Shown: in pieces, positions 5,228 to 37,142 of the stretch | Layout: the number at the start of each line of letters is the position of its first letter | Numbering within the stretch: the stretch's first letter is position 1 | Assembly: GCA_038222225.1 (NCBI GenBank) | Contig: JBBRHV010000003.1 | Location: forward strand, 10,331-74,330 | Origin: Candidatus Omnitrophota bacterium | Lineage (GTDB): Bacteria; Omnitrophota; Gorgyraeia; Zapsychrales; JANLHA01 | Length of the DNA stretch: 64,000 nucleotides | Direction: 5' to 3' | The notes under the pieces: model-generated | What the model was told of the DNA's origin: nothing | Database searches by the model: none | The model's input: only the letters and a program-made list of their open reading frames with translations | Translations under genes and position numbers: made by a program

Positions 5228-7476
5228 GTTAGATTGAATGAGATTTCTTGCTCATCACCGTTTACACTTACTGTGCTCATTCCCGGAATTTTAATTTCCA
5301 TCTGCGGTGGCTCTTTATGCCAATTCGCCTTCCATTGAATAAGAATGTCCTTCTGATGACATTTGATTTCTAATGAAATTTCTCCATAAATTGTCGATGC
5401 CGGACCAAACAATATATTATTTTCCTTCTTAAGCCATTCTAATGGAACGCCGGAACATAAAATTAACTTACCGACTGCTTCTTCCTCTCGGACAAAACAG
5501 TTGCGCATCATTATCATCCATTCCGCTGCGGCCCAGGTATGCTGGCCGTCCCCCATACATCCGCCTTTTGTTTTTGGATGAATCGCCTCCGGCCATTGGC
5601 CCGTGGGAGATGCTAGATCAGCAATTCCCTTCATTAATTGAAAATATCTTTTATCGCCCGCCCTCAAAAATACCTGAGCCATATGCAATGTTAAATAAGG
5701 ATTAATCCCTGAGTGGCTCATATCATGAAAAAAACCATTATTCACCAAACAATGATCAAACAAATACTCTGCTGTATCAGACAATCTGACATTCTCTTGA
5801 ATATTTAACTGCAAAGGATACCCGCAGGCCAACGATCCAACCGCAGATGAATCCAATCGTCGGTAAGGCGATGAAGGAATGGCTTGCCTTTTAATACGGC
5901 TTTCTACATCCTGTAAGCTTTTGTCAACAGCTTGACGCAATAAGTCCGCCTCCCGAGAAAAAACTGCGGATTCTTTTTCTTCACCATACATGAACGCTAA
6001 ATAAGATGCAGCCTCCAATCCTCCAATGCTCCAGAAATCGTCCCAATAATAATAATCATTCGGTCCAAAATGCTCGGCGCTAAAACCTGAAGGCATTAAA
6101 CCCGCATGAATCTTTTTCATATTATCCGCAAGGCGTTTTCTCTTAATCCATCGCGCCCCTTTATGAATCATCTCTTTCCACTCATCCTTCGGCGGCTTAT
6201 TTGTCATTTGAACAAACTTTTGTATAAGCCAAAGAACCTGCCCATTAGAATCCCATTCACCTTCTTGCGACTCAAAGTATCCGCTTATACCTTGCCTCTC
6301 ATGAAATCGATCGATAATACGTTCTGCACGTTCATAAAAACCACAGCATAAAAGAGAATATGTAATAAATACCGCATCACGAAACCAAAATCGTTTATAA
6401 ATGTAGGGCCCGGCATATACATCTTCTGCGGTGTGGGTGATGACTGTCCGCAATGATGAATTGAAAAGATACTGAAAATGCTTATCCGGCACCTCAAGCT
6501 GGCAGGACTTTTCAAGATACTCGATCCAATTTTTTCCGGCATCGGATGATTTTTTTGAAAGTCTCGTTTTTTCTCTTAAAGGAATACTAACTTTTACTTC
6601 CCTTTTTTTGCCTTTTTCTAAATTAAATACAGCTGCAGCACTAGCCATTTCATGAGAACAGCTTATATGCTCTTTTGCGCTGCTTTTCTCATTGAATTGA
6701 TAATAAACATCCCCGTGGTGAAAATCGGATACTACATAATGCTCTGGCTCAATATCAAACAGCACATCGTGCATTTTATTGACTCGCCATCCAGGCCCAC
6801 GCTTTAACAATGAAATATCCTTAACCAAACTAATGCCCTCTGGATTATACGGCCGCAAAGAAACAACTAAACAATTACTATTCTGTCCTTCTGCTGTCAT
6901 CGCAATACAACAAGTTGGATTGCCCTCTTCTTTAATCATTTTGACGCGAGTTGTTAAATGCATATCGCCCGATGAAGACTTGGTCACAACGCTGTTATCT
7001 TCCAATTCCAAATATTGATCAACTTCATTTAACTGTGCAGGAATTAAATCTTTACCATTCTTTGCGACAATCCAAACATCAATTGACCAACTATCCCAAA
7101 AAGGGGTAACTAAGCCACGAGGATCGACTAAGGGAGTTTCTTCCATGTCCGGCAAGCCGACTGCCGTCCAATTTCGGTGCGTTAAATTAATATGCGTTAA
7201 TGAAAAAGAGCGGGGAATAAATGAATCATCCTTTGGATCAAACTGTTTATTCACCCAAAATGGCCAAATCCAGTCTAAATTGTGCTGGATGACCTGTGTA
7301 TTTAACAAGCCCCTGGCATGCAAGACCGCTGTAGCGCGTAATAATTCTGTAGGCGCGAGCACTTCTGAAGGTTGCGCAAATCGACTTATTTTTGTAAAAA
7401 GCCTGACAGGATCTAAAAATCCATGCGCGTGAGCTAAGCGTCTTACAAAATATTTCCAGATAAATCGATTAAACAT
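5224..7476 (-). CDS. Large six-hairpin glycosidase-like protein (GDE_C / amylo-alpha-1,6-glucosidase-like); exact family uncertain.
   Basis: 750 aa; FWFRDAVFI and GYFESQEGEWDSNGQVLWLI resemble GDE_C/GH15-GH63 clan motifs; 4-bp overlap with neighbours suggests an operon. Confidence 0.45.
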   Translation of the reverse strand: MFNRFIWKYFVRRLAHAHGFLDPVRLFTKISRFAQPSEVLAPTELLRATAVLHARGLLNTQVIQHNLDWIWPFWVNKQFDPKDDSFIPRSFSLTHINLTHRNWTAVGLPDMEETPLVDPRGLVTPFWDSWSIDVWIVAKNGKDLIPAQLNEVDQYLELEDNSVVTKSSSGDMHLTTRVKMIKEEGNPTCCIAMTAEGQNSNCLVVSLRPYNPEGISLVKDISLLKRGPGWRVNKMHDVLFDIEPEHYVVSDFHHGDVYYQFNEKSSAKEHISCSHEMASAAAVFNLEKGKKREVKVSIPLREKTRLSKKSSDAGKNWIEYLEKSCQLEVPDKHFQYLFNSSLRTVITHTAEDVYAGPYIYKRFWFRDAVFITYSLLCCGFYERAERIIDRFHERQGISGYFESQEGEWDSNGQVLWLIQKFVQMTNKPPKDEWKEMIHKGARWIKRKRLADNMKKIHAGLMPSGFSAEHFGPNDYYYWDDFWSIGGLEAASYLAFMYGEEKESAVFSREADLLRQAVDKSLQDVESRIKRQAIPSSPYRRLDSSAVGSLACGYPLQLNIQENVRLSDTAEYLFDHCLVNNGFFHDMSHSGINPYLTLHMAQVFLRAGDKRYFQLMKGIADLASPTGQWPEAIHPKTKGGCMGDGQHTWAAAEWMIMMRNCFVREEEAVGKLILCSGVPLEWLKKENNILFGPASTIYGEISLEIKCHQKDILIQWKANWHKEPPQMEIKIPGMSTVSVNGDEQEISFNLT

Positions 7477-8450: not shown

Positions 8451-10172
8451 TTAATGCAACAAAATGTTATCCGTCCGCTGTCCATGACTATGAACCATGT
8501 TTTTCCCTGCCTTCTTGGATTTTGATAACTCAATATCCGCCCTTTGGATCAACTCATATCTATTCGTATTGTGAGCCGTACATTGGGCGACACCAATGCT
8601 CACAGTCACCTCCCGTTTCAGTGAAAGAGCTGCCACGGTGCCTCTGATCCTTGCTGCCACGATCTTGGCCGAAGACACATCCGAATCCGGCAAAATAATA
8701 ACAAATTCATCCCCGGCATACCGACATACAATATCAACATCACGTATACTTTGTTCAAAGGCCTTACCCATCTTTTGCAGCAAAGTATCCCCGTCAAGGT
8801 GACCAAAAGTATCATTATATGACTTAAAATCATCCACATCAATCATAAGTAAAGACAACGGTCTTTCTGGATGACGCTTCAATCTTACAATTTCATGATC
8901 TAACATTTTTGAAAAATAACGGAAATTATAAAGATGCGTCAAAGGATCAGTAATGGAAAGATGCGTTAAATCTCGATATAGTTTCGCGTTTTCCATTGCC
9001 ACAGCTACCTGACGCACGAGCATACATAAAATTTTCAGATCTAGGCCGGAAAAGACGATTCCTTCTTTTGACTTTTTATCCGCGACATTAATAAAACCCA
9101 TCACATTACCGCCTAACTTTATCGGCGCGGAGATAAACGACTTAGTCTTATAAGAGACTCCCTTCTTTCTTAAAAATCTCTTATCATGTTCGATGTCAGT
9201 AATTAAAAGCGGCTTACACTCGCGTGCAATAACCCCCGCTACAGACCCTTCTCTCTTAAATTCGCCGCTGTGAATAAACTTATCCTCTATTCCTTTGTGC
9301 CCTTTGATACAAAGTTCACGTGTATCATCATCAACGATCATCAACGAGCACTTTCCCGCCTCAAGCACTTCCATTGTTTTATTAACAATGAAATCAAATA
9401 ATTTATTCGCATCAAAGATGGTGTTTAGATGTTCTTCAATGCCCAGCACCTTTCTGATTTTATTTCTTTCCAAAACAACTTCTTCGTTCAATTCTTTAAG
9501 CTTTTTTTCTATTTCTATGCGCTCTGAAATATCCCGTGCAATGCTGGAAATCCCGATAATATTGCCAAAAGAATTTTTAATGGGGGAAAGTGCTAAAGAA
9601 ATAGGGATTAGGTGCCCATCTTTATGCTTACATACTGTTTGATAATGTTTGATTTCCCCGCCATCATTGACCTCATCTAATAAGCGCATCTCATCAGCTA
9701 ATCTATCTTCAGGAATAATTCGGTTGACTAGCTGACCAATCATCTCGTTTCTTGAATATCCAAAAAGAATTTCCGCAGCCTCATTCCAGCTAAGGACAAT
9801 ATTGTCTGGTGTTTTTCCGATAATGGCATCAAGTGAAGAATCAACAATAGCCGCCAACGTTGCACTGATCATTCGTTCTTTTTTAAATCTCAGACCAGAA
9901 ATAGTCAACGCCCAAATCAAAGCTATTGATACATGCCATATTTTTTCTGTTGATGGGGAAAGTTTCCAGCTGACGATGAGCAACACAGACGCTATGACCG
10001 CAAAAAAATAAACGTTTCTGCTTTTTGAGGATTGCAAAGACAACATAATAACAAGAAGATATAAAACACCGAAAACTGGCCATGAAAATAAACTATCCAT
10101 ACTGAATATAAAAAGCAACAAAATAACACACCCAATAAAAATAAGAGCGTCTTTTGATTTATGCTTTTTCAT
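8451..10172 (-). CDS. Membrane-anchored PAS-GAF-GGDEF diguanylate cyclase-type protein; GGDEF signature reads AGDEF.
   Basis: N-terminal TM helices, PAS and GAF-like regions, RYAGDEFVIILPD active-site region. Confidence 0.85.
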   Translation of the reverse strand: MKKHKSKDALIFIGCVILLLFIFSMDSLFSWPVFGVLYLLVIMLSLQSSKSRNVYFFAVIASVLLIVSWKLSPSTEKIWHVSIALIWALTISGLRFKKERMISATLAAIVDSSLDAIIGKTPDNIVLSWNEAAEILFGYSRNEMIGQLVNRIIPEDRLADEMRLLDEVNDGGEIKHYQTVCKHKDGHLIPISLALSPIKNSFGNIIGISSIARDISERIEIEKKLKELNEEVVLERNKIRKVLGIEEHLNTIFDANKLFDFIVNKTMEVLEAGKCSLMIVDDDTRELCIKGHKGIEDKFIHSGEFKREGSVAGVIARECKPLLITDIEHDKRFLRKKGVSYKTKSFISAPIKLGGNVMGFINVADKKSKEGIVFSGLDLKILCMLVRQVAVAMENAKLYRDLTHLSITDPLTHLYNFRYFSKMLDHEIVRLKRHPERPLSLLMIDVDDFKSYNDTFGHLDGDTLLQKMGKAFEQSIRDVDIVCRYAGDEFVIILPDSDVSSAKIVAARIRGTVAALSLKREVTVSIGVAQCTAHNTNRYELIQRADIELSKSKKAGKNMVHSHGQRTDNILLH

Positions 10173-10277
10173 ACATGTCCGTTCCTTGCCTTTAAGTTTT
10201 ACAAATTTTCTTCAACTTTCCCCATTAAGAAACGTCCTGATCTATTCTTCTTACTTACAAATGATACATCCCTACCA

Positions 10278-10562
10278 TTAATTATTTTCAAAAACAAAAA
10301 CAACTTTGGTGTCAGGCGCAATCATACAGATCCCGTCATTAAAACACGTTTTAACTCCATTGACCACCGCGATACCTTTACGAATATTAAAAACATTCTC
10401 AGACACTTTTTTACAGAAAACAACACAATGATTGTCTTCTTTCTGTTGCCTTTCCAGGCCGCCAAGAACATTTGGCGGGATCAGATACTGATAAAACTTT
10501 TCAGTCTCACACTCTTGCATAAGTTTACTTTCCATAACCCCTTCTCCTTGTTCAAAAATCAT
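10278..10562 (-). CDS. Hypothetical protein (4 Cys), immediately upstream of the diguanylate cyclase.
   Basis: 94-aa ORF, no recognised motif. Confidence 0.35.
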   Translation of the reverse strand: MIFEQGEGVMESKLMQECETEKFYQYLIPPNVLGGLERQQKEDNHCVVFCKKVSENVFNIRKGIAVVNGVKTCFNDGICMIAPDTKVVFVFENN

Positions 10563-10629
10563 TTATCGAAATAGACGCACCTCTCCATTCCGCGCTTCTT
10601 ATCTTCCGCACGCTTAACGGCGTTTCTCC

Positions 10630-21317: not shown

Positions 21318-21788
21318 TTAATTTAATATATTCGGCGTGCGCCCAAACCAAGGGCATCGCTGATCCCAACGGCCTGCCGTAAAACAGCCCTCTCTAGAGA
21401 TATATAACGGAGTCGCAAAAGAGGCGACGCCAATGGCGATCCCTACGATCATTCTACCTTCGATTAACCAGGCAACACTCGATGCCAAAGCAGTCCCAAT
21501 CCCGCCAAACGTAAATATGAGAGCCGCCAGTATTATGATCTTACGCCGTCCAAAACGGTCAGACCAGACGCCGCCGAATATCACTCCTATAATCGCTCCC
21601 AGCAAAACCGCGCTGACGACAAACTCTTGAGCGATCGTTGAAAGCAAAAAATCTTGTTTGACAAAAAGTATGGCGCCGGAAATAACGCCCGTATCATAAC
21701 CAAAAAGCAATCCCCCCAGCGCGGATATTGCCGCAGCGATTTTAACAAATCCCGTATTCTCAACCGCTAAGTCAGAAACATTGTTCAT
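21318..21788 (-). pseudogene. N-terminal about 150-aa fragment of an MFS sugar-porter transporter (truncated).
   Basis: GYDTGVISGA and SDRFGRRK sugar-porter motifs; the ORF ends after about 4 TM whereas family members are about 450-480 aa. Confidence 0.7.
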
Positions 21789-24839: not shown

Positions 24840-25086
24840 AATAATCCTTTTTAGTTTATTTTTTACATTTTACCATTTTTGTGGAAAAAGGGAAGAACCA
24901 AAAAAGACGTCAGCTTCCCAGCTCCTTGAGTGTGATGAAGGGTGCTAATCGTGAGGGATCTGGCCAGTCTGTGGGGGCACTTCTGCCGTATCTGTTTGGG
25001 GTGGCGAGGTTAAGGGGATTTATGGAGTTAATAAAGGTGTCAGCACCTTTATTTTGAAAAGTGTCTTCCTTCCCCTGCGGGGACCA

Positions 25087-25632: not shown

Positions 25633-25757
25633 ATGGCAATTCCTTTGTAATAATGCCCGGCCATGACAGAACCGGATTAATAGGACTTTCTATTCAGTCG
25701 AATCTCTCGGTTAGCGACTTACAATATAAAGGTGTCGCCTTTATTGACCTTTATTGA

Positions 25758-25866
25758 TTAAGGCAACCTCTAATAATTCCATTTACAGTCAAAATGAATG
25801 GCTCTTTATCGACGATAGCGGAATCAGTAAATGACTCAAAAATAGCATTTTTAGAGGTTGCCTTAA
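25758..25866. repeat. 109-bp element bounded by a 16-bp inverted repeat (TTAAGGCAACCTCTAA ... TTAGAGGTTGCCTTAA), orientation A. Inverton or MITE-like.
   Basis: Same element at 26245..26353 with identical direct flanks (CACCTTTATTGA ... GTATTGTGTC) but the inner 77 bp reverse-complemented. Confidence 0.75.
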
Positions 25867-25883
25867 GTATTGTGTCCCCAGAA

Positions 25884-26153
25884 TTACAGGGATCCTCTTC
25901 TCTTTGGTTTCTTCTCTACACTTTTCTTAGGGGCCATTTTGCCCCGATTACGAATAATCAAACCGTCTAAAAATCGTCTTAACAGCTGATCGCCGCAAGG
26001 CCTATAATTTTCCTGATCGTCTTTACGAAAAATAGCGGAGAGCTCCGAAGGAGAAACTTCTAATTCAGCGAGTTTAAGGATTTCAATAATATCCGTGTCT
26101 CTTAAATGCAAAGCGATACGAAGCTTTTTCATAATGTCGTTATTGTTAATCAT
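25884..26153 (-). CDS. DUF1456 (YehS-like) protein.
   Basis: NDIMKKLRIALHLRDTDIIEILKLAELEVS...QLLRRFLDGLIIRNRG pattern. Confidence 0.7.
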   Translation of the reverse strand: MINNNDIMKKLRIALHLRDTDIIEILKLAELEVSPSELSAIFRKDDQENYRPCGDQLLRRFLDGLIIRNRGKMAPKKSVEKKPKRRGSL

Positions 26154-26244
26154 CCTTGATCCCTCCTGTGATCCTAACAATTAAGCCATTTCTATCCAAG
26201 CCAATAATAAAGGTGTCAATCACCTTTCTTGTCACCTTTATTGA

Positions 26245-26353
26245 TTAAGGCAACCTCTAAAAATGCTATTTTTGGGTCATTTACTGATTCCGTTATCGTC
26301 GATAAAGAGTCATTCATTTTGACTGTAAATGGAATTATTAGAGGTAGCCTTAA
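26245..26353. repeat. Second copy of the IR-bounded 109-bp element, orientation B (interior inverted relative to copy 1).
   Basis: See 25758..25866. Confidence 0.75.
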
Positions 26354-26381
26354 GTATTGTGTCTCCAGAGTTTTTTTATTT

Positions 26382-27251
26382 TTACAAGCCTCTTAAAATT
26401 TCCGGCCTTAACCTTATCTCCCCGTCCATGGCCGACTTCAGGATATTTAACAACATCATTTTATCTTTTGGAAACGTCCCTTCCAGCGGAAGATAATTTG
26501 AGGCGTGATTTGATCGAAATATCGTTTTTTTAAGATCAAGTCCACTAATAATTTCGTACGATTCTTTTAACAACTCTAAGGAATTCAATTCCTCAAAATC
26601 ACCTCTTGCGGCTTCCTGCGCCAAAGGTGTGCCGAGAATGATCATCAACGACAAAAACGAAAGGTATCTTGGCTGCATCCTGTTTAAGGCTGCGATCGTG
26701 CCTGCGACATGATCTTTAGAATATTTCTTGCCGCCTAAGCCCAACAAAACAATCACCGAAGACTTTATCTGCGCCCTCGCCGCCTTATGAACCCCCTCAA
26801 TCATTTCCTCAACGCTTGAAGATTTTCCACACCGATTTAGTATATCCTGACTGCCGCTTTCTAACCCCATATAGATCAGGCTTAATTTATGATCGGACAG
26901 TTCAGTTAATTCCTGATCATTTTTTCGCGTGATATTGCTTCCGTTTGCATAGCTTGAAATGCGGGTAAGCCGTGGAAAGGACTGCTCCAATTTTTCTAAG
27001 ATTGGAACCAACTTGCTATTGTTCAGAACAAGCGCATCGCCGTCCATCAAAAAAACACGTCTCACATCTTTGTAGTGGCGAGCGTGCCAATCGATATCCG
27101 CAAAGATCTCTTTTTGGTCTTTGATGCGAAAAGCTTTGTTCTTATATGCACCGCAAAAGCTGCAGCTATCAGCCGAACATCCCAGCGTGACTTGCAAAAG
27201 AAAACTATCTGCCTCTGCCGGCGGTCTTATAACGGGTTCTACAATAGCCAT
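26382..27251 (-). CDS. Radical SAM domain protein with an unusual CX4CX2C cluster motif.
   Basis: GCSADSCSFCGAY; later glycine-rich SAM-binding-like segments. Confidence 0.7.
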   Translation of the reverse strand: MAIVEPVIRPPAEADSFLLQVTLGCSADSCSFCGAYKNKAFRIKDQKEIFADIDWHARHYKDVRRVFLMDGDALVLNNSKLVPILEKLEQSFPRLTRISSYANGSNITRKNDQELTELSDHKLSLIYMGLESGSQDILNRCGKSSSVEEMIEGVHKAARAQIKSSVIVLLGLGGKKYSKDHVAGTIAALNRMQPRYLSFLSLMIILGTPLAQEAARGDFEELNSLELLKESYEIISGLDLKKTIFRSNHASNYLPLEGTFPKDKMMLLNILKSAMDGEIRLRPEILRGL

Positions 27252-27356
27252 ATAATTTTACCCTGATTTGATAATAGGGGTCAGCGCCCTATCTTTAAAA
27301 GGGCCTGTCCCTGCCGAAAGGAAACGGTGTCGAGCTAAAGGTGTCCGTCACCTTTA

Positions 27357-27794
27357 TTAATCTCTATTCTTTTTAAACCACTCCTGATAATATTCCTCCT
27401 GCGCATCCGCTTTGCCGCTTGCGACATAATCCTGATACAGCATTTCTCCTAGATCTTCGCGAATAACATCATCAGGAACTCGACCGTCATCAAAATCCCG
27501 GTACATAATAAATAACGTCCTTAAAAGAACACCAATAGGCTTCATAAACTGTTCGGGAACTTCGATCCGAATCGAATCAACTTCCTCAGCATAAAACTTC
27601 GGATCCTTGCGAATAATTACACCTTTTCCCGCGAACTTCTCAATCACGCTTTCCACGGCCTTGACCTTCCCTTCAGAAGATAAGGCATCCCACATACCGG
27701 CACTGCTTTGAACTGAATTCTGAATAGAAGATGTCGCCGCTAATGTGGGACAGCACCATGTACACAAAAACATTATAATTAATATTTTCTGCAT
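27357..27794 (-). CDS. Secreted hypothetical protein (signal peptide; start taken at MQKIL).
   Basis: Hydrophobic MQKILIIMFLCTWCCPTLAATSS leader. The upstream in-frame extension is the translation of a CT tract and is unlikely to be coding. Confidence 0.5.
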   Translation of the reverse strand: MQKILIIMFLCTWCCPTLAATSSIQNSVQSSAGMWDALSSEGKVKAVESVIEKFAGKGVIIRKDPKFYAEEVDSIRIEVPEQFMKPIGVLLRTLFIMYRDFDDGRVPDDVIREDLGEMLYQDYVASGKADAQEEYYQEWFKKNRD

Positions 27795-29317: not shown

Positions 29318-29596
29318 CTAAATATTCTTCAGAAACCTTTTAATATCGTCGTGATTTCCCGCAAATATAAATTCCACTAAATCCCCTTGCCACCTAAACA
29401 AGATCCTAGCTTTTATGCCCTTGCGCACTTCCCAAAAGTCACCTCTTAAACGCTTTAAGCCAATTCCTTTATGAATACTTTGATCTTGGGACAGCATATC
29501 AATTAGCTGAATTGCAACTTCTTTTATTGCTGCCTTTTCCTTCTCGGAAAAGGATTTCATTGATCGCTTAAATGCCGGCTTAAATTCAAATTTCAT
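29318..29596 (-). CDS. RelE/ParE-family type II toxin.
   Basis: 92 aa; KGIGLKRLRGDFWEVRKGIKARILFRWQGDLVEFIFAGNHDD pattern; 4-bp overlap with the upstream antitoxin. Confidence 0.7.
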   Translation of the reverse strand: MKFEFKPAFKRSMKSFSEKEKAAIKEVAIQLIDMLSQDQSIHKGIGLKRLRGDFWEVRKGIKARILFRWQGDLVEFIFAGNHDDIKRFLKNI

Positions 29597-29856
29597 AAGT
29601 CTTTAAGATGTTCTTTGGCTACTTCTGCACTGGAAATGCTCTTGCCTTTTTCAGCGGCTAGCTTCTCGATCTTAGCCCATTCTTGTTCCGTGTATGGAGA
29701 TTCAGCCGTGACTTTGCAAGGAACCAAAATCACACCATCTTTTGTAATACCAAAACCCACCGCCGAACCTTCTTTTAAATTCAAAAGCTTTCGAATACGA
29801 TTGGGGATCGTGATCTGTCCTTTGGTGGTCATTTTTGCTACTTCTGTGATTGTCAT
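29593..29856 (-). CDS. AbrB/MazE/SpoVT-type antitoxin.
   Basis: MTTKGQITIPNRIRKLLNLKEGSAV swapped-hairpin motif; RBS AAAGGAG. Confidence 0.7.
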   Translation of the reverse strand: MTITEVAKMTTKGQITIPNRIRKLLNLKEGSAVGFGITKDGVILVPCKVTAESPYTEQEWAKIEKLAAEKGKSISSAEVAKEHLKDL

Positions 29857-30182
29857 TTGAAGGCTCCTTTCATTTTTCCTTACATCCTTACTTAAAGGAT
29901 ACCCTACAAGTAACCAACCGTCAACCCTTTTTAAATCCTGAAAGATCTCACAACACTCTTTCAAACATCCTCTCTAATCACAATCAGAAAGCTGCTTAAC
30001 GCAGAAATTTCATCAATATCAACATGCCACTCATTTGTGTGGATGTCAAGATTCTTCTGTTTCCTTTTATTTTCACCACCAAAACCATCACCAAAATCTC
30101 TAAAAAACATAACGCACCTTGATTAACATCGATATGGCTTGAAAAAATGAAGAAAGGGAAGGCAAAAGCCTTCCCTTTTATC

Positions 30183-30213
30183 TGGTAGCCCCAACTAGAT
30201 TTGAACTAACAAC
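30183..30213 (-). repeat. att-like remnant: copy of the 3' about 30 nt of tRNA-Glu (27/31 identical to the reverse complement of 37323-37353).
   Basis: tggtagccccaactagatttgaactaacaac versus tggtagccccaaccggatttgaaccggtgtt. Confidence 0.65.
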
Positions 30214-30449
30214 ACTTTTAGGTCAAAACTATCGAAAAAACATCAAAATTGTGCAGTTTTTTGCCGACTTTCATCATGCTGATAATTCCATCCCTAAATC
30301 CACTACTAAAAACTTCTATCAACGAAATCCCAAATTCAGAGAACCCTTTATCGACTGGCACGATCCATTCCAGTCGATACCATTAAACATTTCAATCAAA
30401 GACCACAAAATGAAGCAGCTTCCTTGAAGCTCCTTTCCCCATCTCCTTA

Positions 30450-31856
30450 TCAAAACTTCTTTCGCTTCTTAAGATGCTTTACCATCTGAACCATATCTTC
30501 CTTATACATAGACTTCAATTGCTCCCACTTTTCATGAGCAAGATCATAGTCGGGATAAAACATCAAGGCCTTTTCAAAACATTTTTCAGCCTTGCGTTTT
30601 TGAAGCAGAAAAACATAACAAACACCCATATTATGCCAAACCACGTGATTATCATCCCATAGCTTTGAATAATGCTGATAAAATTCCAGGGCCTTTTGAT
30701 ATTGCCCTTCTTTCATGCATCGGGCCGCATCATCAAAAAGTTTTTCAACCTTCTGCTTATCATCTGTGTAAATTCTGTTTATCTGAAAGTCATATCCGAA
30801 TTCTTCCTGGGGATTGCCCATCGCTTTGCGTTCCTCCATAATAACTTCTCTGGGCGTCTTTCCGTTAAGTTCTTCAAGAGGAGCAACAAACCATTCATCG
30901 CTCCACCGCTGAATCTTTTCAACAAACTCTTCCTGTTCTTTGGCAGACATTATCTTCATTGGATACAAAAACGTTTTCTCCATTGCGTCCGTACAAGCGC
31001 TCACCAATGTTTTTTCCAAAGGGCCTTTTTCCATACCCTGATGAAGTTCTCCCACAAACTGATTCCAGACATCGTTAAAAGCCTCGCCGAATTCCTCAAC
31101 ACTGACCCACTCCGGAAGCGTCATGCCGCTCAGCACACTTTGCATTATATCCGCCAGATGCTTTTTATCCTTGATCGCCATTCTCATTTCAAGAAAGATA
31201 TCCTCAGCATCGTCATCCGACAAGCCGCCTTCTTTACAAAGCAGAATGAATTTTTTTTCAACAGATAGCTGTTCCGGAACACGCTCTGGAAACAACGCTT
31301 TATACATCTCAAATGCATCCTGTCGATCATGCGATTCAGACGAGTTTTTTAAAAACAAGCCGATGATATCGTACTCCTGTTTCGGAAAAAACAGGCCATC
31401 CGATGCCATTATAAAATAGTTATCAAACGGCAATAATCTTCCGATAATATAATCGCCTTTCCCGGCAGCTCTGCTTCCTCTGGTGTCAAAAATATGATAT
31501 TCCTCCAATGAAATCACATCTTCGCACACAAACTCTTTACCGATCTTTACTGCCTTAACTTTATAAATCCCGAAGCGGTCCTGCCCAATCCGGGAATATA
31601 TTTCATAAAGCTCCCGGGAGATTTTGCCCCTCTCCTCATCCAGGAAAACATCAAAAAGCCTTTTATGATATTTCTCCAATTGGTGATCAAAAATAAACCA
31701 GTCGAAAAACAGCCGGCCGATATTCTGATCGGTAAATGACAAACGGATAAAATCTTTCTGCCGTTCAAACACCTCTTTTTCTATCGCGGAATGACATCGA
31801 ACAAAATCATTGATCGCATCATACATTTTTTTAATAAGGTCTTTATATTCTTTCAT
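30450..31856 (-). CDS. Hypothetical protein with C-terminal TPR repeats; N-terminal about 330 aa unrecognised.
   Basis: C-terminal KALEFYQHYSKL...GVCYVFLLQKRKAEKCFEKALMFYPDYDLAHEKWEQL TPR-like. Confidence 0.5.
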   Translation of the reverse strand: MKEYKDLIKKMYDAINDFVRCHSAIEKEVFERQKDFIRLSFTDQNIGRLFFDWFIFDHQLEKYHKRLFDVFLDEERGKISRELYEIYSRIGQDRFGIYKVKAVKIGKEFVCEDVISLEEYHIFDTRGSRAAGKGDYIIGRLLPFDNYFIMASDGLFFPKQEYDIIGLFLKNSSESHDRQDAFEMYKALFPERVPEQLSVEKKFILLCKEGGLSDDDAEDIFLEMRMAIKDKKHLADIMQSVLSGMTLPEWVSVEEFGEAFNDVWNQFVGELHQGMEKGPLEKTLVSACTDAMEKTFLYPMKIMSAKEQEEFVEKIQRWSDEWFVAPLEELNGKTPREVIMEERKAMGNPQEEFGYDFQINRIYTDDKQKVEKLFDDAARCMKEGQYQKALEFYQHYSKLWDDNHVVWHNMGVCYVFLLQKRKAEKCFEKALMFYPDYDLAHEKWEQLKSMYKEDMVQMVKHLKKRKKF

Positions 31857-32083
31857 TGTGTCAATTTTTGTAGAAACCCCTGATCAATAAATCATTAATA
31901 AATCGTGACCATGTTTTGCTGAAGTTTTCTGCAAGTATAAATTCCACCAAGCCGTCAAAGTTTTTTTCTTTTAGATGCCATAAAATTATTCTGTTTCATA
32001 AAAAATTTTGAATGCCAATTTAAAATTTTTATACAAATAATAGCCTTTTGGAAATGCATAAGTCTATGGTATTCTTACAGTAT

Positions 32084-32263
32084 GAAAGAAACATCCCTCT
32101 TTGAATCAAATCCTTATTTAAAAAATCAGGCTGTACGAAACCGGATGTTTTTAACTGCCGTGAATACCTCGACTGCTATTGAAGGTGTTCATGTCGATAT
32201 CTCATCTCCAAAAAAGCGTTCACGCCAAAACACATCCATATCTAGGAAGATGCTGAAGTAGCC
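32084..32263 (+). pseudogene. Fic-family N-terminal fragment (inhibitory-helix region TSTAIEGVHVDIS), 59 aa.
   Basis: Hand translation MKETSLFESNPYLKNQAVRNRMFLTAVNTSTAIEGVHVDISSPKK... parallels the N-terminus of the intact Fic at 35362..36378. Confidence 0.55.
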
Positions 32264-32490
32264 TTCTTGATTGTCCTTCTGATAACACTCAAAAACATCC
32301 TCTGCATGGGAACATAGTCTCTTCTAAGACCAGATTGTACCGCTGCGATATATTCGGCCTTTTTTCTGCCTTGAATACCGCCAAAATCCAAGGCCGGCAG
32401 CCCTGCCTGAAGAGCCATGATGATAGAAAGAAGTCGCGCAATTCGGCCGTTACCTTCCCGAAACGGATGGATCAGAGACCAATAAAAATA
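32236..32490 (-). pseudogene. Fic-family C-terminal fragment starting at the catalytic motif (YFYWSLIHPFREGNGRIARLL...). No start codon; in frame directly after the HEPN stop codon.
   Basis: HPFxEGNGR Fic motif read by hand. Convergent with the N-terminal fragment on the opposite strand. Confidence 0.7.
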
Positions 32491-32895
32491 TCAAGATAGC
32501 TTGTTCTTCACAAATTCAAAAAACCGCTCACAATCTTTAAACATCTTCTCTGCCTCGTTTTTGCAAACAAGGCGCTCCTCATACTCAGCCATATTTTTCA
32601 TCCGCAAAATCCTCACGATACGGTTGGCGTTTGTCGTGAACTCTTCGGTGTTTTTGATCATTTTAAACAGGACGACCGCCTGATTATGGTCTTCGCCGGC
32701 GCTTCTTTTCCCCAAAAAATAAACGCACATGGCGTCACAGGCGGATATCGTGCAGTGTATCGCATTAATAGCAACAGCATTCCACTGTTGTCCTTGCAAG
32801 GCTTTCTGCGATGCATTAAAACACTCTTGTGCTTTCTGCATAAAATTCGTATACGCTGCGCGCTGAACATCCCGTGTTTTCGGCTTTGCTATCAT
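32491..32895 (-). CDS. HEPN-domain protein (toxin partner of MNT).
   Basis: R-x4-6-H motif (KRSAGEDH); genetic pairing with the MNT gene. Confidence 0.7.
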   Translation of the reverse strand: MIAKPKTRDVQRAAYTNFMQKAQECFNASQKALQGQQWNAVAINAIHCTISACDAMCVYFLGKRSAGEDHNQAVVLFKMIKNTEEFTTNANRIVRILRMKNMAEYEERLVCKNEAEKMFKDCERFFEFVKNKLS

Positions 32896-32907
32896 AACAT
32901 CATCCTC

Positions 32908-33504
32908 CTAGGGGAATAATTGTATTCCTTTTTCGATTTCCTCCAAAAGCTTCAGATCCTTCTTCTGCTGAAACTGTTTTTCCGTCAGAACATACGCAGC
33001 CAATCTGTTGCCAAATTTTTCTAGGCATGTAATAGACAGTCCCTCAAGCGATTCCTCCAGAGACTTTAAACTTTCCTTATTTTGGGTCAAAACAAAAAGA
33101 TCAATATCGCTGTCTGTTTTTTCATCATGACTGGAAACAGATCCGAACAAAACGACTTTAATCAGGCTTTTCTTGGGTAGTCTGCTTAAAATGGTCGTTT
33201 TTAAGGCCACAATCGGCTGTGGCTGCGTGTCAACGATCCCTTTGACAGTATTCAACACATCATAAGCGTAACTCTGAGGATTGACTTTCCAGACATGGGC
33301 CCGCCCTACTCTTTCATAGGAAACAAAATGCCACTGCTCCAGATAGCGCATAACCCGGTTAACCGTCATGTGCGAAATTCCCACCAGAGACGAAATCTCT
33401 CTCTCACTCATGGCGGACTCATGGTTAATCAAAAACCGGACAACCTTGAGTTTCGCCTCAGTATCGATCAATTGAAAAAACGAATCATGAAACTTCATAC
33501 GCAT
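32908..33504 (-). CDS. Minimal nucleotidyltransferase (MNT) with N-terminal winged HTH (antitoxin partner of HEPN).
   Basis: LFGSVSSHDEKTDSDIDLFVL (GS...DxD) motif; wHTH at the N-terminus. Confidence 0.75.
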   Translation of the reverse strand: MRMKFHDSFFQLIDTEAKLKVVRFLINHESAMSEREISSLVGISHMTVNRVMRYLEQWHFVSYERVGRAHVWKVNPQSYAYDVLNTVKGIVDTQPQPIVALKTTILSRLPKKSLIKVVLFGSVSSHDEKTDSDIDLFVLTQNKESLKSLEESLEGLSITCLEKFGNRLAAYVLTEKQFQQKKDLKLLEEIEKGIQLFP

Positions 33505-33506
33505 TC

Positions 33507-33552
33507 CTTTGTAACTTTCATGTTACAAATGTAACATAAATGTTACATAAAA
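33507..33552. promoter_or_regulatory. Operator-like 18-bp perfect palindrome ATGTTACAAATGTAACAT plus an extra TGTTACAT half-site, immediately upstream of the MNT start.
   Basis: Palindrome read directly; the downstream gene encodes a wHTH protein. The TGTAACAT half-site also occurs at about 36645. Confidence 0.5.
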
Positions 33553-33615
33553 TCAATGATTTTATATCGAAATATCAACGGCACCATACGACGCAAAAAC
33601 TCTTTAAACTTCATC

Positions 33616-33963
33616 TTCATTTACTAGAGAGTGGTTGCCCAATTATGGCTAAATCCTAGTAAATGGCTTTTTGGCCATTTTCCCAAAATGCCGATTGCGA
33701 CTATTTTGATTTATTGTCATTTACTAGGGGCCATTTACTAAGTGCCACTTCTGATAGAAATGGCTAGTATCAGACCCAATTTGGCTGTCGCGAGTACTAT
33801 CAATTTTTCCAAATGTAAGCATCCAGCGCCGAAACTACAAAACACCATCCCACTTGCGCCCTAACCCTTTGACACGTCAAGACATGAACGATCCCTGACT
33901 GCGTTTGGCAATCAGGGATCTTTGTGATTCTGAGAGTCGTTTCCGACACTGTTATACTGGTAG
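33616..33963 (+). repeat. Repeat R2 (CATTTACTAG sites x4 in direct/inverted orientation, terminator hairpin, ends ...TTATACTGGTAG); lacks the central sRNA-like segment.
   Basis: Alignable to R3 36711..37142 and R1 558..873. Confidence 0.75.
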
Positions 33964-33999
33964 TGTACGCTGTCCGAAGACACACATGACTCTCACCAT

Positions 34000-35263
34000 T
34001 GATCTTCCCCACTTTAGTGGACAGTTTGTTTAGTTAGGACGGCTCGATTTTCAAACTCAAAAGGACTTAAATAATTGAGCGTTGAATGACTCCGTCTACG
34101 ATTATAATACATCTCTACATATTCAAAGATTTTTCTTCTTGCTTCTTCCCTAGTTCGAAATCGGTACTTGTGAACAAGCTCGACTTTTAACGTGTGGAAG
34201 AAGCTCTCAGCGACGGCATTATCCCAGCAGTCACCTTTTCGGCTCATACTGCCGATAAGCTTATGTTCAGCCAATATCGCCTTGAAATCATTCCCTGCGT
34301 ACTGACTGCCGCGATCTGAGTGACAGATCAATCCTTTATCCGGATTCCGCCTTAGGATCGCCTGTTGCATAGCCCTGGTGGTTAGTGTCGCGGCAATGGT
34401 TTTATCCATGGCCAAACCAACAATCCCCCGCGAAAAAAGATCCAGCACCATCGCCACATATAACCACCCTTGAGAAGTCCAAATATACGTTATATCGAAT
34501 ACCCAGACGGCATTGGGCTTCTCGACCACAAAGTTCCGATTCAAAACATTCGGCCATACCGGATAATCATGCTTCGAGTTCGTCGTTAACCGAAACTTAC
34601 GCTTCTGGACAGCGACGATTCTGGCTTCTCGCATGACCTTCGCCACACGGTTCTCCGAACAACGGATATGTTTGACGTTGTTCAACTGGTCCCAGATTCG
34701 TGGACTGCCGTAATTCTCTTTGTTCTCCACAAACACACATTTTATCTCAATGAGCAATGCTTCATTCTTGATGCGGCCCTGGCTCTTGGGCCGATTTTTG
34801 TATGCGTAATACCCGCTCCTCGACACTTCCAAGGCCCGGCACATCTTCCCGAGCGGAAAGACCAAACGGTTATCGTCTATGAATCCGAACCGTTCTCGGT
34901 CGATTTTGAAAATATGCCGACTGCTTTTTTTAGGATGTCACGCTCCATTTCAACATCACGTAACTGACGCCGTAACGCCGCCAACTCTGTCAAATGACCC
35001 TTGCCGGGAAAAGCCTTCTCTCCCTCATCGCCAAACTGCTTCTTCCAGAGATACAGCCGCCCCGGGTCGATTCCAAGGCTCCTGGCCACCTCTGCGGCCT
35101 TGTGCCCGCCCTCTGTGACCATCTTGACCGCTGACATCTTGAACTCCCGGTCAAACCGCTTCTTCTTCCCGTTTTCTCCTGCCATTGGACACCTCCCGTT
35201 TTTGAGCCGGCTATCATATTAAAACCAACTCTTCGTTGTGTCCACTTTTTCGGGGGAAGATCA
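34000..35263 (-). mobile_element. IS3-family insertion sequence (orfA 34877..35185, orfB 34014..about 34930, A7 -1 frameshift site near 34920; terminal IRs TGATCTTCCCC...).
   Basis: OrfA HTH protein; OrfB rve/DDE integrase core; slippery CTAAAAAAAGC; about 25-bp imperfect terminal inverted repeats at 34000 and 35263. Confidence 0.85.
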
Positions 35264-35361
35264 CTTTATCAACTTGAATAATGCATTCAAGTCGTTACAA
35301 CCGGATTTTTATCCATTCAAATCTTGAAATTTCGCACTCTTTCTTTGGATTTTCATACCAT

Positions 35362-36378
35362 TTATTGCTTTTCCACATATTCAGCCATATCCTGCACCCG
35401 AACATGCCAAGTCTTCCCTCTTTTGACACCCTTTAATTTTCCCCGATTAATTAAATTGCGAAGATAATCTGAAGAGTAATTATAGATTCTTGCCAAATCA
35501 CTCAGCGGCAACTCAGCCTCTTTATTAGTGTGACGAATATCTACTTCCTTAAGGCGTCCTACGGCATCATCCAACCGTCCTATAACAATTTCTTTTATCT
35601 TATCAAAATCCTCCAGACGAATGCATTCATCTACATCATTAACATCAAACTTTTTCCCTTGCTCTATTTTGCGATGAATTAATTCAAAAACATCATCTGC
35701 CTTCTCTAGGGCATCATAATAATACTCACGATCCTTTTTAGAAATACCTTTGATCGCTATATTCATCAACCCACATCCAATGAGAATATACGATAATAAA
35801 ATCCTCCCAGTGCGCCCATTCCCATCAGAAAAAGGATGGATCGATTCAAACCAAACATGTGCTATCGCCGTTAGTTCAATATGATTATATTTCTCTTTTT
35901 TTAGATGATAATTAATCCATTTAACCAATAATTCCGTCGCTGGACGCACATAAAATTCACTAATAGGCGTAAACGTAGATTCTGTAACCTCTGCCCTGCC
36001 CTTACGAAATCCCCCTAAATCTCCGATATAAAATCCCATTTCCTTTTCATAACGCATCAAAAGAGTGTGGATCTGTTTAACATCAGACATACGCACTGAA
36101 AATTCTTCTTCCTTGTGTTGATTTGCCGCATATTCATACATCGCAGATGCTGCTTCAAAATAACCTAGAATAGATGCCGCCTTATGCTTATCCGTTCTTT
36201 TATTATTTTCAAGAATATCAATCAAATCTTTACGATTAGCAAATACTCCTTCAATCGCAATGGAGTTGCGAATCTCATCCTTAAACAAAGAATACCATTC
36301 GGCATTAGAAACGCTGATCAAATGATCCTTTGTTTCTTTTAACTTGTTGAACTCTTTTAAAATAGCTGATAATTTCAT
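35362..36378 (-). CDS. fic: Fic-family protein (intact; HPFSDGNGRTGR motif) with a C-terminal HTH-like region.
   Basis: Fic motif, N-terminal SIAIEGV inhibitory-helix-like motif, 338 aa. Confidence 0.85.
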   Translation of the reverse strand: MKLSAILKEFNKLKETKDHLISVSNAEWYSLFKDEIRNSIAIEGVFANRKDLIDILENNKRTDKHKAASILGYFEAASAMYEYAANQHKEEEFSVRMSDVKQIHTLLMRYEKEMGFYIGDLGGFRKGRAEVTESTFTPISEFYVRPATELLVKWINYHLKKEKYNHIELTAIAHVWFESIHPFSDGNGRTGRILLSYILIGCGLMNIAIKGISKKDREYYYDALEKADDVFELIHRKIEQGKKFDVNDVDECIRLEDFDKIKEIVIGRLDDAVGRLKEVDIRHTNKEAELPLSDLARIYNYSSDYLRNLINRGKLKGVKRGKTWHVRVQDMAEYVEKQ

Positions 36379-36445
36379 GACATATTCCTAAGTAGTGTTA
36401 AATATCAAAATCTATCGAACCACATGTGCTTATTAAAACCAACAA

Positions 36446-36602
36446 GACTTGCGAACCTTTTCTTATGGTTCGATAATAATATATCATATTTATGTGTGAA
36501 ATAAAGCTATTTCTAGTATTTTACCGAACCTTCCGAACCACATCCAATTCTTATTTTTACCCTCAAACTATCGAACCTTTGCGCATGGTTCGGTAAAAGC
36601 CT
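36446..36602. promoter_or_regulatory. Two palindromic CGAACC-N9-10-GGTTCG sites (36446-36470, 36577-36602) plus CGAACC half-sites upstream of fic; putative operators.
   Basis: gcgaaccttttcttatggttcga and atcgaacctttgcgcatggttcgg read directly. Confidence 0.45.
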
Positions 36603-36710
36603 CAAATGTCCGTCTTTTTCTCAGACCCACTAGCTTTCCAGATATGGATATGTAACATAAAAATTGTACAAAACAGCACTTTCATTTTACAAAACACAAA
36701 AACCCCACTA

Positions 36711-37142
36711 TTCATTTACTAGAGAATTTTCGCCATATTCAGGCACAATCCTAGTAAATGAAATTCTGGCTATTCCACCCCAATAGGCATTTTCAAACAT
36801 TTTGATAAATAAGCATTTACTAGGAGCCATTTACTAAAGGCCGATTTTGATAGAAATGGCTAGTATCAGACCCAATTTGGCTGCCGCGAGTACTATCAAT
36901 TTTTCCAAACGTGATCATCCTGCGCCGAAACTACAAAACATCATCCCCATTACGCCCTAACCATTTGCAACGTCAACACAGGCATTACCCCCTTCGGGGG
37001 TTGATGCTGCGCAATCATCTAAACTCTGCAAAAAAACACCAGAGTTTAGATACGCAAACCGCATCAAAAATCCCTGACCGCGTTTGGCAATCAGGGATCT
37101 TTTTGATTCTAAGAGTCGTTTCCGACACTATTATACTGGTAG
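36711..37142 (+). repeat. Repeat R3 (full-length: CATTTACTAG site cluster + sRNA-like structured segment about 36930-37095 + terminator), directly abutting a tRNA-Glu 3'-end copy at 37137.
   Basis: See R1/R2; ends with ...ttatactggtagccccaa. Confidence 0.75.

Follow-up and report, generated by a model that had tools for sequence, protein, structure and literature searches.

Several described systems come close to the arrangement considered here. Invertons, such as those of the fimS and hin types, are invertible promoters bounded by inverted repeats. The Correia (NEMIS) elements of Neisseria are palindromic sequences of roughly 100-150 bp that occur in either orientation, lie in the intergenic regions of operons and are co-transcribed as long RNA hairpins; they duplicate TA on insertion and carry defined promoter and IHF-site variants. 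Non-autonomous transposons (MITEs) with IS5-family ends are likewise known from other bacteria (PMC4596501). IS5 itself duplicates a YTAR target, which includes TTAA, and hops preferentially to nearby and non-coding sites, and IS elements are a cause of rearrangements (PMC5009759).

Here, we analyse a pair of 109-bp units that surround a DUF1456 gene in a 64-kb stretch of DNA, which we call the window. Like invertons, the locus has a short segment, present both ways round, between inverted repeats. A first-pass annotation had therefore proposed an inverton-like switch or, alternatively, MITE-like elements inserted in opposite orientations. It is the latter proposal that holds. Each unit is a 101-bp IS5-type non-autonomous transposon with a 4-bp TTAA target-site duplication, and the inverton reading is not supported. 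The elements are thus the usual trace of a mobile element and leave one small question of rearrangement, since the flanks of both units are direct repeats while their cores are inverted.

The two units and their flanks

The units lie at 25758-25866 and 26245-26353, with a spacing of 378 nt, and are reverse complements of one another at 105 of 109 positions (96%). Together with the direct flanks, this agrees with the pair as it was first described. Copy 1 (plus strand) consists of a 101-bp element at 25762-25862 with TTAA at 25758-25761 and 25863-25866; its left end is end B (GGCAACCTCTAATAATTCC) and its right end, read inward, is end A (GGCAACCTCTAAAAATGC). Copy 2 (minus strand) is the reverse complement of copy 1 with four mismatches, its element spanning 26249-26349 with TTAA at 26245-26248 and 26350-26353, and its end B has GGCTACC. 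The terminal inverted repeats are near-identical over 16 bp, as the first reading had it: those of copy 1 (TTAAGGCAACCTCTAA / TTAGAGGTTGCCTTAA) are perfect over 16 nt and reach 27 nt at 89%, and those of copy 2 have one mismatch (TTAAGGCTACC). The terminal 16-mer occurs four times in the 64-kb window against 0.46 expected (none of 100 shuffles reaches four), and a search for a third unit across the window returned the two copies only.

Read along the minus strand, the gene order is radical SAM (27251-26382), copy 2, DUF1456 (26153-25884), copy 1 and a hemerythrin-domain gene (25632-25087), so that the radical-SAM gene is upstream of copy 2 and the hemerythrin-domain gene downstream of copy 1. 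The short form of the DUF1456 gene encodes 89 aa behind a GGAGGG ribosome-binding site. It sits in the 378-bp segment bracketed by the inverted pair (25867-26244, minus strand), which is the candidate for an inverted segment. The closest homologues of the radical-SAM gene (81-83% identity) are in Candidatus Omnitrophota MAGs; exact-sequence look-ups returned no record for DUF1456, whether as the 89-aa form, the 98-aa form or P0001. Folded as RNA, each copy gives a single end-to-end hairpin whichever way it is oriented, with energies of -29 to -37 kcal/mol and z of -4.8 to -6.5 (for copy 1, -33 to -36 kcal/mol and z about -6). A structured-RNA identity was also considered and rejected, as an Rfam scan of 24.5-27.8 kb gave no real match: the only hit, to mir-282, scores 22.8 bits, below the gathering threshold of 55 (E = 0.45), and is put down to chance.

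The flanks deserve equal attention. On the right they match at 17 of 19 positions (GTATTGTGTCYCCAGARTT). The right flank of copy 1, R1 (GTATTGTGTCCCCAGAATT, 25867-25885), overlaps the DUF1456 stop codon (25884-25886) by two bases. That of copy 2, R2 (GTATTGTGTCTCCAGAGTT, 26354-26372, within a plus-strand feature at 26354-26383), runs into a T7AT5 tract (26371-26383) located just before the radical-SAM stop codon (26382-26384). On the left, the 11 nt next to the units are identical (ACCTTTATTGA, 11/11), and beyond them a gapped similarity with indels extends to about 36-42 nt. The first-pass annotation had called these direct flanks identical; that they are direct repeats stands, and the left CACCTTTATTGA really reads GACC.../CACC... 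The left flank of copy 1, L1 (25722-25757), holds a hairpin (ATAAAGGTG-TCG-CCTTTATT) followed by a half-site, GACCTTTATTGA, that abuts TTAA, and the left flank of copy 2, L2 (26202-26244), has the same layout (hairpin AATAAAGGTG-TCAAT-CACCTTTCTT, then half-site CACCTTTATTGA). The last 12 nt of L2 match L1 at 11 positions in direct orientation and, if flipped, are complementary to it at 11 of 12.

When the MITEs are removed, the two intergenic regions align contiguously across TTAA over 59-66 nt (score 74-79, against a shuffle maximum of 24). On the minus strand, this module of about 60 nt reads AAYTCTGGRGACACAATAC-TTAA-TCAATAAAGGT...GACACCTTTATTATTG. A MITE-free module in the present orientation would read ...GGRGACACAATAC-TTAA-TCAATAAAGGTG... 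(also given as ...CACAATAC-TTAA-TCAATAAAGG...). Inside the module is a short hairpin, AAAGGTG-N3-5-CNCCTTT (with a loop of 3 nt in the copy at 25725-25745), and, as the locus now stands, four minus-strand genes in a row have a short hairpin of this AAAGGTG type on their 3' side. Two extensions of the module were tried and rejected. A third, MITE-free copy downstream of the hemerythrin-domain gene has only the short hairpin in common (remainder p = 0.18-0.63), and a duplicated unit reaching into the 3' coding ends (RGL*/RGSL*) gave p = 0.96.

A family of elements with IS5-type ends

The termini of the two units (GGCWACCTCTAAWAAT...) bound elements of 97-300 bp in MAGs of many phyla. A scan of a genome collection with the terminal 16-mer was mostly saturated by chance single matches; among the 117 matches listed, an inverted second 16-mer lies 97-299 bp away in at least 35 loci, a pairing whose chance we estimate at about 0.0015 per locus. 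The hosts among the matches listed include Syntrophaceae and other Thermodesulfobacteriota, Planctomycetota, Sedimentisphaerales, Bacteroidota, Spirochaetota, Bacillota, Victivallales, Caldithrix and Gallionellaceae. Members have in common two slightly different ends, end A (GGCWACCTCTAAAAATG) and end B (GGSAACCTCTAATAATTCC), around unrelated, hairpin-rich interiors. The two ends differ consistently, including at stem-breaking positions, and thus point to protein-recognition sites rather than to a selected RNA helix.

The outer four bases of each unit are a direct target-site duplication. Adding a second scan, of metagenomes, in which the query was end B without its outer four bases, identical 4-bp direct repeats were found in at least 48 non-redundant members among the matches listed from both scans. 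TTAA is the most frequent (36 members), and TAAA, TACA, ATAA, TTGA, TATA, TGAA and others also occur. Because TAAA, TACA, ATAA and TGAA are not palindromic, the 4-bp repeat must be direct. Both window copies have TTAA on each side, and since TTAA is palindromic the junctions are the same whichever way the element was inserted.

IS5-family transposase genes lie within or beside the same ends in at least five loci (L070, L057, L157, L020 and L151). The first is a 1,234-bp element encoding 342 aa with the Pfam domains DDE_Tnp_1 and DUF772 and a match to the NCBIfam IS5-family equivalog NF033581 (279 bits, against a cutoff of 140); L057, from a Planctomycetaceae MAG, is about 1.34 kb long and L157 is 1,356 bp. 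The terminus of L151 is identical to end B of the window over 27 nt. The window units therefore have what defines a MITE derived from the IS5 family, namely the ends of transposase-bearing relatives, a 4-bp YTAR-like duplication and a small size without transposase coding. The two open frames of the 101-bp element have no homologues in 5.8 billion protein clusters, and tblastn with the L070 transposase detects no cognate enzyme in the window (E > 2). A 22-mer specific to the subfamily had no matches in the JGI metagenome set. Further copies in the genome are hinted at by the breaks of Logan contigs, which fall at element positions 28-29 and not at about 38. Other identities were discarded, as the consensus motifs of integron attC sites, sigma-54 promoters and piggyBac/IS1380 ends do not fit the sequence. 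The terminus motif GGCWACCTCTAAWAAT had no match in the literature text searched; hence, while the element belongs to a well-known kind, its family may be undescribed by name.

These family data bear directly on the idea that each 109-bp unit flips in place between fixed flanks, whether as an inverton served by an invertase or by rare recombination or template switching at the unit's own 16-27-nt terminal repeats after a module-plus-MITE duplication. We regard this as very improbable. What speaks for it is the geometry, with inverted repeats bounding a segment seen both ways between homologous flanks, together with a TTGACT hexamer inside the unit and the fact that invertases can act from distant loci (the analysis covered the 64-kb window). 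The repeats, however, are transposon ends: the family to which they belong makes target-site duplications and has relatives that carry a transposase. The hexamer is present and oriented as the first-pass annotation described, but it has no -10-like partner at 16-18 nt, and a scan covering sigma-70-like sites predicts no promoter inside either unit. The earlier remark that the window lacks an invertase gene is borne out: none of the 46 window ORFs scanned has the Resolvase or Phage_integrase domain of a serine or tyrosine recombinase, and the sole mobile-element enzyme is an IS3-type rve transposase (34014-34865).

Two independent Logan contigs (L001 and L119, SRR19962012), which are 100% identical to the window but may share the assembly's sample, read 28-29 nt into copies 1 and 2, respectively. 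This takes them past position 17, the point from which the two orientations can be told apart, and the orientation seen is only that of the assembly. Family loci sampled in several metagenomes also always have the same orientation. Moreover, since either orientation gives one long RNA hairpin, flipping would change little for a read-through transcript. Given this folding, a present-day effect is more likely to be on the structure or stability of the transcript than on the direction of a promoter.

Candidate histories of the inverted pair

The flanks of family members are normally unrelated and non-palindromic, so a pair with direct flanks needs a specific explanation. Among the matches listed, common flanks are otherwise seen only where one and the same locus turns up in more than one sample. 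If anything flipped, it is more likely to have been the 378-bp segment with DUF1456 than the interior of each element. We give a little under an even chance to the view that the direct flanks and inverted cores arose through inversion of this segment between the copies. In a one-step route, intramolecular, replicative transposition of one MITE to a TTAA at a distance of 0.4 kb would create the second copy in inverted orientation and at the same time invert the DNA between the two. IS903 transposes replicatively, and the model assumes the same for the IS5 subgroup here. Alternatively, homologous recombination between two 109-bp copies could have inverted the segment later. The inversion model requires the copies to be inverted, and so needs no separate 50% coincidence for their orientation.

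The main argument for an inversion comes from the locus that it would restore. With the inversion undone and the MITEs deleted, DUF1456 and its GGAGGG ribosome-binding site would be on the plus strand, and its stop codon (TAA) would run straight into a 19-bp hairpin with a TTAA loop (AATTCTGGGGACACAATAC-TTAA-GTATTGTGTCTCCAGAGTTTTTTT) and then into T7AT5. That is, the reconstructed element would have the canonical form of an intrinsic terminator, directed at the stop codon of the convergent radical-SAM gene, with R1 as its 5' arm and R2 plus the T tract as its 3' arm and U-tract. At the flipped-back right junction 19 consecutive pairs form (-28.3 kcal/mol); this hairpin takes in the final two bases of the DUF1456 stop, and U7AU5 comes next. 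The differences between R1 and R2 are both transitions, each of which gives a G.U pair in the plus-strand RNA. An A/T-rich tract directly after the stop codon is found in only two of 49 genes here, a terminator scan of the present arrangement returned no terminator-like site, and DUF1456 genes in relatives have their own hairpin and T-run 3'. The flipped-back left junction is complementary at 11 of 12 positions around TTAA and would form a second TTAA-loop hairpin, in the divergent region toward the hemerythrin-domain gene, in which case both MITEs would have landed in the loops of TTAA hairpins. The terminator reconstruction, the G.U transitions, the rarity of A/T tracts after stop codons and the lack of a terminator-like site at present all support an inversion history, in which the DUF1456 cassette may have flipped and split its terminator.

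Other observations count against an inversion. Under this history each MITE must lie in the middle of a palindrome, and the 48 other members among the matches listed show no such tendency (a mean of 3.35 complementary flank positions of 12, against a null of 3.66, with a maximum of 8); hairpin-loop targeting as a property of the family was rejected on the same flanks, which are not palindromic. The left palindrome is long and imperfect, with arms of 36-42 nt that contain indels. The ORFs of at least 120 aa at 1.3-36 kb are almost all on the minus strand, as DUF1456 is now (the one exception is 10161-10574), and this makes the present orientation look native. In a short-read MAG, a 378-bp segment between 109-bp inverted repeats may also have been oriented by the assembler. 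No un-flipped or empty allele was found among the relatives of DUF1456 (L120-L125) or of the radical-SAM gene (L174-L177): in both sets the coding regions alone are conserved, the former having VF530 and SNF2 genes as neighbours and the latter (Candidatus Omnitrophota, 81-83% identity) other genes downstream. Uneven divergence along the module, tried as an argument for inversion, was not significant (p = 0.25).

The strongest competitor is a history in which nothing was inverted. In this case, DUF1456 would already have lain between two direct copies of a module of about 60 nt. Two independent MITE insertions would then have struck the homologous TTAA in opposite orientations, the later one probably as a local hop from the first copy. 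The alignment of the MITE-free intergenic regions across TTAA is what such a history predicts, and the target is not very improbable, as there are about two TTAA sites per short intergenic region. The local hopping, non-coding bias and YTAR target of IS5 (PMC5009759) fit as well, the palindromic TTAA leaves orientation free, and DUF1456 is co-directional with its neighbours, each of the four consecutive minus-strand genes being followed by an AAAGGTG..CACCTTT hairpin. In addition, divergence is slightly lower in the MITE cores, with 4 differences in 109 nt, than in the module, where about 60 nt contain 3 substitutions and 3 indels. On the other hand, the perfect 19-bp hairpin of the right flanks, differences that are G.U-only and the T7AT5 that would follow the DUF1456 stop are all left to chance, and some mechanism must have duplicated the 60-nt module, for which the supposed third copy offers nothing significant outside its short hairpin. 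The absence of any other pair with common flanks also weighs here. We consider this double insertion somewhat unlikely, although it and the inversion of the 378-bp segment are near-equal, with inversion slightly favoured.

It is improbable, in our judgement, that the arrangement is not fixed at all, either because the assembler oriented the 378-bp segment arbitrarily or because the MITEs keep recombining, so that both isomers coexist in the population and the contig shows one of them. In favour of this, the sequence evidently comes from a metagenome-assembled contig, the matching Logan contigs break inside both MITEs so that none spans an inner junction, and the alternative isomer, with its terminator intact, is structurally the more sensible one. 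Nevertheless, a modern assembler should resolve the orientation, since typical reads and large assembly k-mers are longer than 109 bp and four positions distinguish the copies, and no direct evidence of heterogeneity was found. A composite transposon bounded by the MITEs was considered too. Inverted copies do bracket DUF1456, and its relatives occur in other contexts. With TTAA at all four junctions the outer duplication is uninformative, and the match between inner and outer flanks is not something that such a model predicts.

Significance and comparison with known systems

The locus carries a practical caution, in that a palindromic MITE pair at TTAA sites can mimic the signature of an inverton. 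A census of target-site duplications, combined with a search for transposase-bearing relatives, separates the two. The ends of this IS5-type family are strikingly conserved across many phyla, which could help in annotating MITEs and IS elements in MAGs. If the inversion of the DUF1456 segment is true, the locus would also be a compact natural example of a MITE pair that re-orients a gene and splits its terminator. There is a slim chance that the inverted pair acts today as a recombination-driven orientation switch for the 378-bp cassette. Such a switch would alternate between two states within the population. In one, DUF1456 would be convergent and self-contained, its hairpin terminator intact; in the other, it would be co-directional with the radical-SAM and hemerythrin-domain genes and its terminator would be split. 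As a related possibility, this MITE lineage may target the TTAA loops of hairpins and terminators.

Compared with invertons, the window repeats are transposon ends with target-site duplications; the units have no promoter-like site and no nearby invertase, and the contigs compared give no evidence of two orientations at one site. Inversions between inverted IS copies offer another parallel. As in those cases, the orientation of the bracketed segment is at odds with the flanking signals, and the predicted outcome of an inversion-type intramolecular transposition matches the present junctions. The differences are that the repeats here are 109-bp MITEs, that the segment is only 378 bp long and that no alternative isomer was observed. 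With the Correia/NEMIS elements the window MITEs have in common a similar size, a palindromic build, intergenic positions in either orientation and a long RNA hairpin in both orientations, but they do not duplicate TA and show no promoter or IHF-site variants. The nearest relatives in kind are elements of the BrickBuilt/MITE239 type in Porphyromonas gingivalis and the ATR elements of Neisseria, the latter linked to ISNme1 (PMC4596501). Like these, the window units are short, non-coding and intergenic, share their terminal inverted repeats with full-length elements of the IS5 family and have a 4-bp duplication of the YTAR type. What sets the present family apart from both is its terminus, GGCWACCTCTAAWAAT as opposed to their GAGACCTTTGCA-type ends (PMC4596501), its occurrence in many phyla and its very variable interiors.

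Relatives and possible further copies of the MITEs

At one locus (L040), a 636-bp member of the IS5-type element family (5388-6023) holds a whole 141-aa DUF559 ORF, with a Vsr-like endonuclease fold, inside its ends, a passenger gene in an element of MITE size. Partial family ends are nested or in tandem at a second locus (L063, 3779-3902), where the occurrence of several GGCAACCTCYAAAAA motifs in 124 bp suggests that one family copy was inserted into another. Six metagenome contigs (L136, L141, L144, L149, L150 and L152) share one context, aatttaggcatatttaRaagGGCG|GGCAACCTCTAATAATTCCTTATGATTTAGTC, in which the end-B 19-mer is present without TTAA. No partner end for this 19-mer was found within 700 bp in any of the six, and the shared context reflects either conservation of one locus or an element of greater length.

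Two Logan contigs of SRR19962012 end inside the MITEs of the window. Position 1 of L001 corresponds to 25786, 29 nt inside the MITE, and position 1517 of L119 to 26326, 28 nt inside. A two-copy model (k = 31, with the position-8 mismatch) predicts a break about 38 nt into the MITE, whereas the observed breaks lie at 28-29 nt, and they therefore hint at extra MITE copies in the sample.

Genes and hairpins around the MITEs

The DUF1456 protein (25884-26153) is a short, one-domain form of 89 aa, whereas most homologues are two-domain YehS proteins of about 155 aa. Its final ~10 codons were found in this genome alone. Because similarity to its close relatives (~85% nucleotide identity) is limited to the coding region, and because these relatives adjoin VF530 and SNF2-helicase genes, the gene appears to have been relocated to its present site.

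We also observed a hairpin, AAAGGTG-N3-5-CNCCTTT (frequently AATAAAGGTG...CACCTTTATT), 3' of four successive minus-strand genes: the 192-aa ORF, radical SAM, DUF1456 and hemerythrin genes (hairpins at 27337-27358, 26206-26230, 25725-25745 and 25030-25053). All four loops start with TC in the plus-strand reading, and the hairpin is nearly confined to these sites within the 64-kb window. Conceivable roles are those of a weak terminator, an operator or an element affecting RNA stability.

Elsewhere, a 156-aa ORF (21318-21788) matches only the first ~128 of 452 positions of the Sugar_tr/MFS profile and is probably a truncated transporter gene or a pseudogene.

Possible second repeat system and accessory or defence-like island

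Several repeat families (81-214 nt, 77-95% identity) recur at three places (335-873, 33616-33963 and 36314-37142). Since they lie on either side of an IS3-type transposase ORF (34014-34865, rve) and a Fic/HTH gene (35362-36378), they may form a second repeat or mobile-element system, separate from the MITE pair. The transposase and Fic genes belong to an accessory or defence-like island (29593-36378), together with a MazE-type antitoxin (29593-29964) and a HEPN and nucleotidyltransferase pair (32491-33504). In an Omnitrophota MAG (L175), the radical-SAM orthologue has a comparable Fic-NTase-HEPN set downstream.
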